DNA from: Escherichia coli
GTDB lineage: Bacteria; Pseudomonadota; Gammaproteobacteria; Enterobacterales; Enterobacteriaceae
Strand: one strand, 5' to 3'
Assembly: GCF_045037415.1 (NCBI RefSeq)
Contig: NZ_CP173438.1
Length of the DNA: 64,000 nucleotides
Shown here: positions 18,001-21,000 of the stretch, piece after piece
How positions within the stretch are numbered: position 1 is the first letter of the stretch
Layout: the number at the start of each line of letters is the position of its first letter
Made by a program: the position numbers

Positions 18001-21000
18001 AAGCTGTTGATTTTGGTACGCCCAGGCGACGCCCGACCACAACCTGGGGTAAATGTTCTTCAAAGTGAAGACGTAAAGCTTCAGTGATCCAAGTCCGGTG
18101 TTTCATACGATAGTGTCCATTAAAAATGATGGACATTATTTTTGTAAAACCGGAGGAAACAGACCAGACGGTTTAAATGAGCCGGTTACATGTAATCCAT
18201 ACTCATCCAAGGTTTAATTCTGACACAATAAGAAAATATGGAAAGTCTCGCTCTAGAGATGGGGAGAGGGATATTGAAGTGTATGATATTCCAAGAACTG
18301 CCGGAGATATCCTCGTAAATGGATTTTCCAGTGCAAACTGATAACAAATTCGAAGTCATTATCTGCAACAAGATTGATTGATGTAGGGGATATGTTAGAG
18401 CATTATAATGCTCAAGGATTTGGCGTGATGACATCTGCGCCAATTGATGCGACACTATATGATAAACTGGATGCTATTTGCAGTAAGTGTAAAATAGAAC
18501 AAATAAATTTTTCAGTATTAGAGTCAGAACGCGCACTATATTATGACGATATATTAAGATGCCGTTACTTTGGTAAATAACATAAAATTAATCAATATGG
18601 TAATATATCAGTTGTAATTGATCGAAACAAAGCACATAAATGCCATCTTAGAAAGATGGTGTTTTTTAAGCATATAAAATATATTTTCTATAAGATATAG
18701 GGCAAACTAAATTTCTTGACTTCTATGATGGACTAACTAGATATACATGCCGCCAGTTTTTATAAAACGACGGCATATATAATCATTTATATATCTTTTG
18801 ATTTTATTCGTAACCACTCATGTTGATCTAAACCTATTCTTGACAGATTAGCAACAATATCAGTTGTTATTTTTTGCGCGTACGTTGTTTTTATTTCCCC
18901 GATCCATTTCAATACTTTTGGAGTAGATATTTTTTCAACGAGTAAAGGAACGAATGAGATATAGTCAGTATTAACTAGATTGTTCTTTTTCCCTATGATG
19001 ACACCGTTTCCATTTTCGACTCCAAATGAAAATGAAATAATATTAGAAGCTTTTGCCGGCATTTTAATTTTATAAAAACCGCCATATTCATCTTCGATTA
19101 ACAAATTGTAATTATTATCGTCCAGTGTTCCCCTGAGGAATAAAAAATCGGCTTTTTCATGCAATCTGACGCTATCACATAATGGTTGTATGCATAGATA
19201 GACAAAATTATATGCATCTAAAAGTAAAGTTCCTTGTTTTAAGGACACATTATCTATATGAGAATGATATCTTAAACTCCTGCGCGTGATTTCCAGAGAG
19301 CATAATTGCATTAACTTTTTATCTTCTTCACCATCTTGGCTTAAGTATTCCTTTTTACCTAAAGATGCGTGTTCAATAGCGTGTTGAATTTCTTCTAAAG
19401 AATCAGCAGAGAGTATATTCCTTAGATGTTCTACTGATAAGTCTTTTTGTTTTTTTCCAGTTAATAGAAAATTCTTACAACCATTTTCTGCATAGTGAAA
19501 AATAGGCCAATGGGATAAGGAGTTTTTGCTTAGAGATTTCTTTAAGTTTTCACTTATTTGCAATATTGATCTTATTTCTTCAGAAATTAAATCTACTGCA
19601 TAATCATGAGCATTTTCATAAGCATATGCCCTTGACTCCTTGGATTTTATTAAATTTAAGATGTGGGAAACATATGCAGTGTCTAATTTATTATTATATT
19701 TTGTTAATATCCCATGGGTTTTTTCTCTTATTTCAGAAATGCAAGAGAGTGCGGCGTTGGATAGCAACCCAGCTGTAAGGTTAGTGAATTTTTTTATTAA
19801 CACATTTGGAAGATCTTTTTCATAAACGTCTTTACTAATAACAACTATACACCATTGTTCGAGTGCATAGTTATCTTCAATAAAAATACTATCATCATTT
19901 TTTATTACGCTACGGTATGTTTTCTTTAACTCATTGTTCAACTTAGTTATAACAGCAGTAACATGTTCACCAGTATAAATAGAAAGAAGACGTAAACGTC
20001 CTCCAGAATTTATATCTGAAACGATTATCGATTTTATTATTTCAATAGCAAATTGCCCACTATCGCTTTGCATATCCCAGTCAAGTATTGTTATATCTGC
20101 CTTGTGGGATGATGCTGTAATTATATCTCTTTCTTCAACATTAAAACTCTTAGCTAATAATCCGCAACAAGCAATACCATCTTTGGCGAAAGCTTCTGCT
20201 AGAGCTTGGTAATCAAAAGGATGGTTTTTTACCTTTGCTTTTGATTTAGTTGATTCTATCCTTGGGGATGCTGATGCTGTTATTATTGGTGTAGGATCAT
20301 CGTCGGGATCAACTAAAGCATTAATATCTTCGTCTGTAGGGAAAGTATCACTACCAGCTCCAAAAGACATATTGTCATCTACAGCAACTACAGAATGTAA
20401 AAAACGGCGAACGCAGTCTTCAGAAAGTTTATGAAAATCAGTAGAGCTTGTCATTTATTTATATCCGCTATTCACTTGTTTCTTCTGATGGCTCAATAAT
20501 AAAGAAAGCACCCTGTTCAGGAGTGTAATCATCCAATCTTATAGTAAATCCATCTCGAGATAAACACTCTTTGGAAATGAATAATCCCATTCCACGCCCT
20601 CCTGTTTTTCGTGTAAATCCCATATCAAATATTATATCTCGATCTCTAGTTGAAACACCGGGACCAGTATCACCAATAACAAATCCTGTTTCAGTAGCAT
20701 CAAGTATAAGTCTTTTTTCTCCAGTTGTTTTCCCAAGCCAGTATATTGCGTTATCAATTAGATTTATAAAGACAGGGTAAATGGTTGATGTGTAAGTTAC
20801 AATTTCTTGATTAACAAACTTTGAGGTAGTGAATAATTCAATTCCTTCTTTCTCAAGACGATCATCGAATACATCTCTGATAAATTCTAAAATGGCAGTT
20901 CCAGTTATATTGGTTTTAGAGCGACTTAAACGTCTTGTCAATGGTGTAAAGGTTTTTAAATAACCATCTAAGTGATCAAAACTAGTTCTGATTTTTTGGT

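Follow-up and report, generated by a model that had tools for sequence, protein, structure and literature searches.

A receiver protein encoded beside a kinase-like ATPase and a C5 methylase in Escherichia coli carries a family-specific output module with a predicted CcdB/MazF-like fold

The closest described relatives of the system considered here are the Pfam families PF19192 (Response_reg_2) and PF19191 (HEF_HK), both of which come from Bellieny-Rabelo et al. 2021 (PMC8011034). That study reported 91.6% pair adjacency over 644 regions, together with frequent upstream C5 methylases, downstream Vsr genes, nearby HNH_2 domains, kinship to paraMORC ATPases, and receiver loops that are extended and poorly conserved; its dataset included E. 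coli copies, and the C-terminal 330 amino acids of the receiver protein were not analysed (PMC8011034). Here we examine one such pair in a 64,000-nucleotide stretch of E. coli DNA (contig NZ_CP173438.1 of assembly GCF_045037415.1; “the window” denotes this whole stretch), focusing on a 555-amino-acid protein that RefSeq names “response regulator receiver domain” and that is encoded by the third and final gene of a same-strand operon (that is, C5 methylase, then a 986-amino-acid kinase-like protein, then the receiver protein; Table 1). We tentatively read this protein as the output arm, switched by phosphorylation, of a defence cassette gated by methylation, a reading that we find plausible but would stop just short of backing.

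Two further systems provide points of comparison. In paraMORC operons, the ATPase is paired with helicases and recognizable nucleases (restriction-endonuclease fold, HNH or TIR) (Iyer, Abhiman and Aravind 2008, PMC2292703). In Detocs, phosphotransfer from a kinase to a receiver-effector constitutes an anti-phage system, in which defence needs the His, the Asp and the active site of the effector (bioRxiv 10.1101/2023.01.24.525353); its components are the TPR-sensor kinase DtcA, the buffer receiver DtcB and the receiver-effector DtcC, with no methylase, and the effector is a PNP ATP nucleosidase or one of several swappable alternatives. The DefensePredictor paper contains a HATPase/REC system, which may or may not be the Response_reg_2/HEF_HK pair, as an unvalidated prediction, and the GHKL-Shedu and WonAB systems of the Vibrio WASA paper are unrelated to the pair.

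Measured against the published pair, the E. coli cassette is no different in kind, sharing its Pfam matches, domain order, adjacency, upstream methylase and occasional downstream Vsr gene. That the protein has a receiver domain, which partner it has and that the two are linked to a methylase was already known from the literature (2021), Pfam and RefSeq, and our receiver finding is a correct rediscovery of a published system. What we add is the predicted three-part architecture of the output module, its invariant residues, its apparent restriction to the family and its predicted CcdB/MazF-like fold, as well as independent confirmation of the receiver by model and alignment. Like the MORC/paraMORC systems (PMC2292703), the cassette has an N-terminal GHKL ATPase beside cytosine methylases and Vsr genes in mobile islands; here, however, a complete histidine-kinase core forms part of the same polypeptide as the ATPase, the partner is a receiver protein, and no nuclease is recognizable. 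Detocs offers the best functional analogy, as a kinase there hands phosphate to a receiver fused to a non-DNA-binding effector, but the cassette differs in its MORC-like GHKL ATPase sensor region, in its obligatory methylase, in lacking a buffer receiver and in its fixed output module. Membership of Detocs was considered and rejected (no stand-alone receiver gene, no TPR, a methylase in third position and a receiver protein with no PADLOC match).

A receiver fold at the N terminus

The open reading frame (ORF) of the 555-amino-acid protein is real and intact, with an ATG start on the minus strand. The initial annotation proposed, from the spacing of a few motifs, that this protein has a divergent receiver-like N terminus, and named the lack of such a fold as an outcome that would speak against it; profile, structural and alignment evidence all bear the proposal out. 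Response_reg_2 matches residues 18–198 (E = 4.1e-29, model positions 1–168 of 180) and is present in nearly all listed homologues, the two exceptions being truncated entries. A full-length AlphaFold model built from a 66-sequence alignment (predicted local distance difference test (pLDDT) 79, predicted template modelling score (pTM) 0.73) has the (beta-alpha)5 topology (beta1-alpha1-beta2-alpha2-beta3-alpha3-beta4-alpha4-beta5-alpha5) plus two inserts (that is, a disordered stretch of approximately 40 residues after strand 1 and a hairpin before strand 5), with the landmarks at the strand ends: the acidic pair on strand 1, the acceptor Asp on strand 3, the Thr on strand 4 and the Lys on strand 5. 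Foldseek comparison of this model with the PDB picks out the solved receivers 8phx (Sln1), 4dad and 8tef (PorX) at target template modelling (TM) scores of 0.58–0.63, with weak E-values (every match E > 0.01). Finally, hhalign aligned 37 family N termini with a small canonical receiver alignment over the whole domain at 86% probability (E = 5e-6), the canonical set including the OmpR-type regulator of the window itself.

The register of the hhalign alignment places VAVDD at CheY D12/D13, ILDW at D57, IYT at T87 and the Lys at K109. D26, D27, D125 and K208 are invariant in the 37 sequences, which span Proteobacteria, Bacteroidota, Actinomycetota, Planctomycetota and Acidobacteriota (at least five phyla), and T161 is Thr in 35 and Ser in two. 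The motifs first quoted for the protein (VVAVDDN with D26 and D27, ITILDWDM with D125, and LLSIYTGE with T161) are therefore present, and the PF19192 match and the hhalign alignment show them to be more than chance resemblances. For LDWDM, in which a candidate Asp had been pointed out, a conserved acceptor does exist and is the first Asp (D125); the second, D127, falls away, being Gln in most relatives (consensus ILDWQM). The long insertion that had been noted after the first strand was also recovered; it is acidic and Pro-rich, and its presence is conserved family-wide, whereas its sequence is not.

Compared with canonical CheY-like receivers (PF00072), the domain is alike in its fold and in the alignment of all five phosphorylation landmarks, but it is unlike them in carrying the two inserts and in that HMMER gives no link (the family profile finds no receiver among PDB sequences, and Pfam reports only PF19192). 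Judged from the model and the alignments, the N-terminal ~228 amino acids are a genuine receiver fold with every phosphorylation residue conserved, and the domain looks functional.

The kinase-like partner and the conserved gene order

The 986-amino-acid partner matches HEF_HK (PF19191) with E = 1.5e-25. Across 33 sequences, the His box (H780-E781-F782), the N box (N889, D892, N893) and the G2 box (G944, G946, G948) are invariant, as are the N-terminal GHKL motifs (E28, N32, D35, D56-x-G-x-G60 and G101-R107). By these residues, the protein keeps both its His box and its kinase ATP site intact and has, at the N terminus, a second ATPase of the MORC-like GHKL type. Because the landmarks of receiver and kinase are both conserved, both halves of the pair look catalytically competent. 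The third member, a 348-amino-acid methylase, matches TIGR00675 dcm (E = 2e-48) and the PADLOC type II methyltransferase model (E = 2e-95); only 4 nucleotides separate it from the kinase gene, and 13 nucleotides separate the kinase gene from the receiver gene.

Linkage was examined in 43 loci (three contigs found via homologues and 40 from a scan of 100,044 species genomes, with ORFs classified using jackhmmer). The initial annotation would have been weakened by an absence of linkage to the ATPase gene in other genomes; instead, 39 of the 43 loci, from many phyla, have the kinase-like gene immediately upstream of the receiver gene, and in the remaining four the receiver gene is represented only by C-terminal fragments, at insertion sequence (IS) insertions or contig ends. 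Wherever the flank is present, the C5 methylase gene is directly upstream of the kinase gene, except in L008, where it is downstream instead, and in L028, where none was detected. A Vsr gene accompanies 12 of the 43 loci. The flanks are unrelated between loci (Tn7-like transposons and elements, islands, metabolic genes and metagenome contigs), and no further conserved gene, nuclease included, was found beside the cassette across the 43 loci. Across phyla, the genes keep the order methylase–kinase–receiver protein, and the cassette is mobile.

One gene of the pair is split into two ORFs in 6 of the 39 loci (the kinase gene in L006, L010, L024 and L036; the receiver gene in L040 and L044), and the methylase is intact wherever it lies on the fetched DNA. 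Splitting of the pair beside an intact methylase is what one would expect were the pair costly or toxic; the split genes reflect either counter-selection of the pair, as is often seen for restriction genes, or assembly errors.

Between the GHKL domain and the coiled coil, kinase residues ~130–480 lack a Pfam assignment and contain many invariant positions (G382-G383-x-Y385, R392, P395-Y396-G397, D402, E407, R410 and E440-K-A-G-R-E-G446). This region may be an S5-like transducer of MORC-type ATPases or an unrecognized catalytic domain. The N terminus of the protein resembles BbrUII/HgiDII-family restriction enzymes (E = 4.6e-20, residues 9–126), a match of 71.7 bits against a cut-off of 550 that covers the ATP-binding part only. 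The cassette holds a methylase, and a nuclease domain was identified in neither the kinase-like protein nor the receiver protein.

Just downstream of the receiver gene, 5 of the 43 loci, from Enterobacteria, Bacteroidota and Acidimicrobiia, encode an HNH-domain protein of approximately 260–335 amino acids (L005, 10858–11730; L013, 9006–9791; L027, 4018–4803; L041, 8101–9108; L042, 7506–8477). The L005 protein matches PADLOC HNH models, and its N terminus weakly matches a type IV methyl-directed enzyme model. Possibly, the HNH protein serves the cassette as an optional accessory nuclease.

An output module confined to the family

The C-terminal ~350 amino acids, in which the initial annotation could assign no motif, gave no match in Pfam, NCBIfam, PADLOC or PDB sequences, either as a single sequence or as a profile (PDB profile searches returned only a spurious ribosomal protein at E = 0.3–0.4), and they form a family-specific module. 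In AFDB50, Foldseek places the module exclusively in “Response receiver domain-containing proteins” (approximately 510–650 amino acids) and in a small number of shorter, fragmentary entries. Scanning all 1.84 billion representatives with HMMER places it in 1,436 clusters at 50% identity; the full-length matches are proteins of approximately 500–640 amino acids that carry the module C-terminally. Because both scans find the module only fused to the receiver, we take it to be fixed and family-specific. Candidates for a stand-alone or otherwise-fused module were checked and set aside: the inspected matches among the short ones (126–270 amino acids) and the four C-terminal-only loci proved to be split or frameshifted genes, IS disruptions or contig ends.

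In the AlphaFold models, the module has three parts: a helical bundle, a small and poorly conserved alpha/beta sub-domain, and a beta-rich domain followed by two terminal helices (Table 1). A separate model of residues 301–555 reached a pLDDT of 82, and approximately 90 over most of the beta-domain. The C-terminal domain is predicted to have the beta-barrel and C-terminal helix of the CcdB/MazF/Kid toxin superfamily. The family-wide invariant polar residues are R243, D258, H264, C421, Q423, C426, D427, R430, R539, E546 and R549. Unlike CcdB, MazF and Kid (PemK), the output domain has no detectable sequence relationship to that superfamily, is fused to a receiver rather than free-standing and has no neighbouring antitoxin gene (none is conserved in the cassette), and nothing comparable to its CxQPxCDxVR loop and RxG...EWLR tail is known from MazF or CcdB. 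Sequence kinship to MazF/CcdB was rejected at an hhalign probability of 0.4%, and none of 30 C-terminal segments of family members gave a PemK_toxin or CcdB Pfam match, even at E = 0.1. The predicted toxin-like fold is the sole lead to the role of the output domain. A PD-(D/E)xK nuclease (D427...E520-x-K522) was also considered and rejected: its apparent invariance was limited to 66 mostly gammaproteobacterial sequences, position 520 is E, Q, R or D across phyla, and the fold search gave no restriction-endonuclease match.

Pfam, NCBIfam and fold searches returned no helix-turn-helix, winged-helix or other known DNA-binding output, and the invariant Cys, His, Asp and Arg of the 330-amino-acid module are more reminiscent of an active site or obligate interface. 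Both observations count against a regulatory role, offered as speculation in PMC8011034, in which the pair responds to a cue from within the cell and the C-terminal module, by binding DNA or the methylase, tunes the expression or activity of the linked restriction–modification genes. Such a role would suit the two-component architecture and the association with restriction–modification genes. Most response regulators are, moreover, transcription factors. Most loci, however, consist of the methylase and the pair only, so that there is no restriction enzyme present to regulate, and we consider the regulatory role improbable.

The predicted fold itself allows for a protein that does no catalysis. 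The CcdB/MazF fold is an SH3-like barrel and could simply bind nucleic acid or protein, which would make the 555-amino-acid protein a phospho-regulated adaptor or a reader of DNA or methylation state, with catalysis residing in kinase residues ~130–480 or in the accessory nucleases (HNH, Mrr-like) of some loci. The many invariant residues of that kinase region, the resemblance of the kinase N terminus to BbrUII/HgiDII-family enzymes, and the HNH genes beside the receiver gene in different phyla (with HNH_2 also noted nearby in PMC8011034) are in keeping with this division of labour. Yet the BbrUII/HgiDII match is confined to the ATP-binding part, sequence searches identified no known nuclease fold in the kinase protein, and most loci are without accessory nucleases; on balance we regard an adaptor as unlikely, though worth keeping in view.

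A hypothetical route from DNA mark to effector

Returning to the defence cassette that we favour, the 555-amino-acid protein would be the response-regulator-like half of a cytoplasmic two-component-like pair that a mobile cassette of three genes ties to a C5 cytosine methylase. The methylase would mark host DNA, and the GHKL/MORC-like part of the kinase might then detect unmarked incoming DNA. Given the conserved residues on both sides, we infer that H780 phosphorylates D125 and so switches on the C-terminal output module, which phosphotransfer may free as a growth-arresting or restricting effector, possibly a toxin-like one. By analogy, Detocs provides a precedent for a defence role of such wiring.

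Several points weigh against this scenario. The searched literature yielded no experimental work on the Response_reg_2/HEF_HK pair. PADLOC 2.0 includes no model of the receiver protein, so that the defence role stays a proposal, and the sensing of unmethylated DNA is conjecture, as neither protein has a recognizable DNA-reading or nuclease domain. In addition, no methylase was detected near the kinase-like and receiver genes of L028 (Arthrobacter sp. AL12, 3885–11193). In that locus, a UvrD-like helicase gene follows the receiver gene.

In its boldest form, the proposal would amount to a new kind of immunity, in which self is marked by Dcm, a MORC-like clamp reads unmarked DNA, and His–Asp phosphotransfer reaches a toxin domain of CcdB/MazF fold, such that foreign DNA leads to growth arrest or to RNA or gyrase poisoning instead of, or besides, DNA cutting (that is, a phosphorelay-gated toxin without an antitoxin). 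We regard this version as speculative and doubtful. If the phosphotransfer model is true, two-component signalling would serve immunity directly in a second case, independent of Detocs, and for the first time in connection with DNA methylation, and bacterial MORC-like ATPases would gain a defined signalling output. The family is widespread, with ~1,400 clusters at 50% identity in many phyla and a presence in ~3.6% of complete E. coli genomes.

Genomic setting in E. coli

The cassette block has a guanine-plus-cytosine (GC) content of 34%, compared with 45% across the whole window. Its island has a fragment of IS66 TnpA at one edge and a TraG-N pseudogene at the other and lies inside a uropathogenic pathogenicity island. 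The 7-kilobase region is 100% identical in the chromosomes of many human and animal E. coli isolates, for example the urinary tract infection strain 4/0, in which it sits between hlyCABD and cdiBAI with IS and TraG pseudogene fragments on either side.

Table 1 Features of the cassette and its proteins in the window
Feature	Position	Strand	Basis
Low-GC (0.34) island with the cassette	18137..24860	.	composition; annotation of identical region in strain 4/0
C5 DNA cytosine methyltransferase gene, 348 aa, first in operon	23433..24479	minus	TIGR00675 dcm, PADLOC, RefSeq annotation
Kinase-like partner gene, 986 aa	20468..23428	minus	Pfam, NCBIfam, invariant motifs in 33 sequences
Partner domains: HATPase_c_3 23-129; coiled coil; HEF_HK 770-835; HATPase_c 882-980		minus	Pfam
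H780 of HEF_HK	21089-21091	minus	
Response_reg_2-family gene, 555 aa (WP_016238529.1), stop codon included	18787..20454	minus	ORF list and translation
Receiver (REC-like) domain, residues ~18-228	19771..20403	minus	Pfam, AlphaFold, Foldseek, hhalign, landmark invariance
Receiver landmark codons D26/D27	20374-20379	minus	
Receiver landmark codon D125	20080-20082	minus	
Receiver landmark codon T161	19972-19974	minus	
Receiver landmark codon K208	19831-19833	minus	
Disordered acidic/Pro-rich insert, residues ~34-76, strand 1 to helix 1	20227..20355	minus	AlphaFold pLDDT <50
Helical bundle, residues ~230-324; invariant G229, R243, D258, H264	19483..19767	minus	AlphaFold, invariant columns
Small alpha/beta sub-domain, residues ~329-393	19276..19470	minus	AlphaFold models, conservation analysis
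Predicted beta-rich CcdB/MazF-like-fold domain and two terminal helices, residues ~402-555	18790..19251	minus	
Invariant loop C421-x-Q423-P424-x-C426-D427-x-V429-R430	19165-19194	minus	
Invariant tail R539-x-G541...E546-W-L-R549	18808-18840	minus	

The pathogenicity island is rich in pseudogenes and fragments (IS3, IS66, TraG-N, VasL and conjugation genes), and this decay, together with the truncated neighbour described below, raises the possibility that the cassette is an inactive passenger, a clonally carried relic in a decayed integrative element; the 100% identity across genomes would also fit recent clonal spread rather than selection. However, all three reading frames are unbroken and spaced as in an operon, the copy of the window retains every catalytic landmark, and 194 of 5,426 complete E. 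coli genomes (about 3.6%) keep at least 80% of the 7-kilobase region. We therefore consider a relic very improbable.

Coordinates carried over from strain 4/0 put hlyCABD, the alpha-haemolysin operon, at ~4156–11403 of the window and the contact-dependent inhibition locus cdiBAI at ~26782–38732, with the cassette between them. A search of the window for a Vsr gene found none. At 18177–18580 on the plus strand is a frameshifted 3′ remnant (ORFs of 54 and 68 amino acids) of a gene converging on the cassette, adjoining the IS66 TnpA fragment at its end. The full gene is intact (500 amino acids) in Citrobacter (L005, 8874–10376, minus strand) and Buttiauxella. It has no Pfam match and only a weak PADLOC match, to the candidate PDC-M58A; by eye, its C terminus (...SRDGGRDIEVFD...WIFQCK...) looks like an Mrr-type restriction-endonuclease motif. 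Further away, at 14362–16557 on the plus strand, an OmpR-type response regulator and a sensor kinase form an ordinary pair, unrelated to the cassette, that adjoins a molybdopterin oxidoreductase gene and a frameshifted cytochrome b gene.

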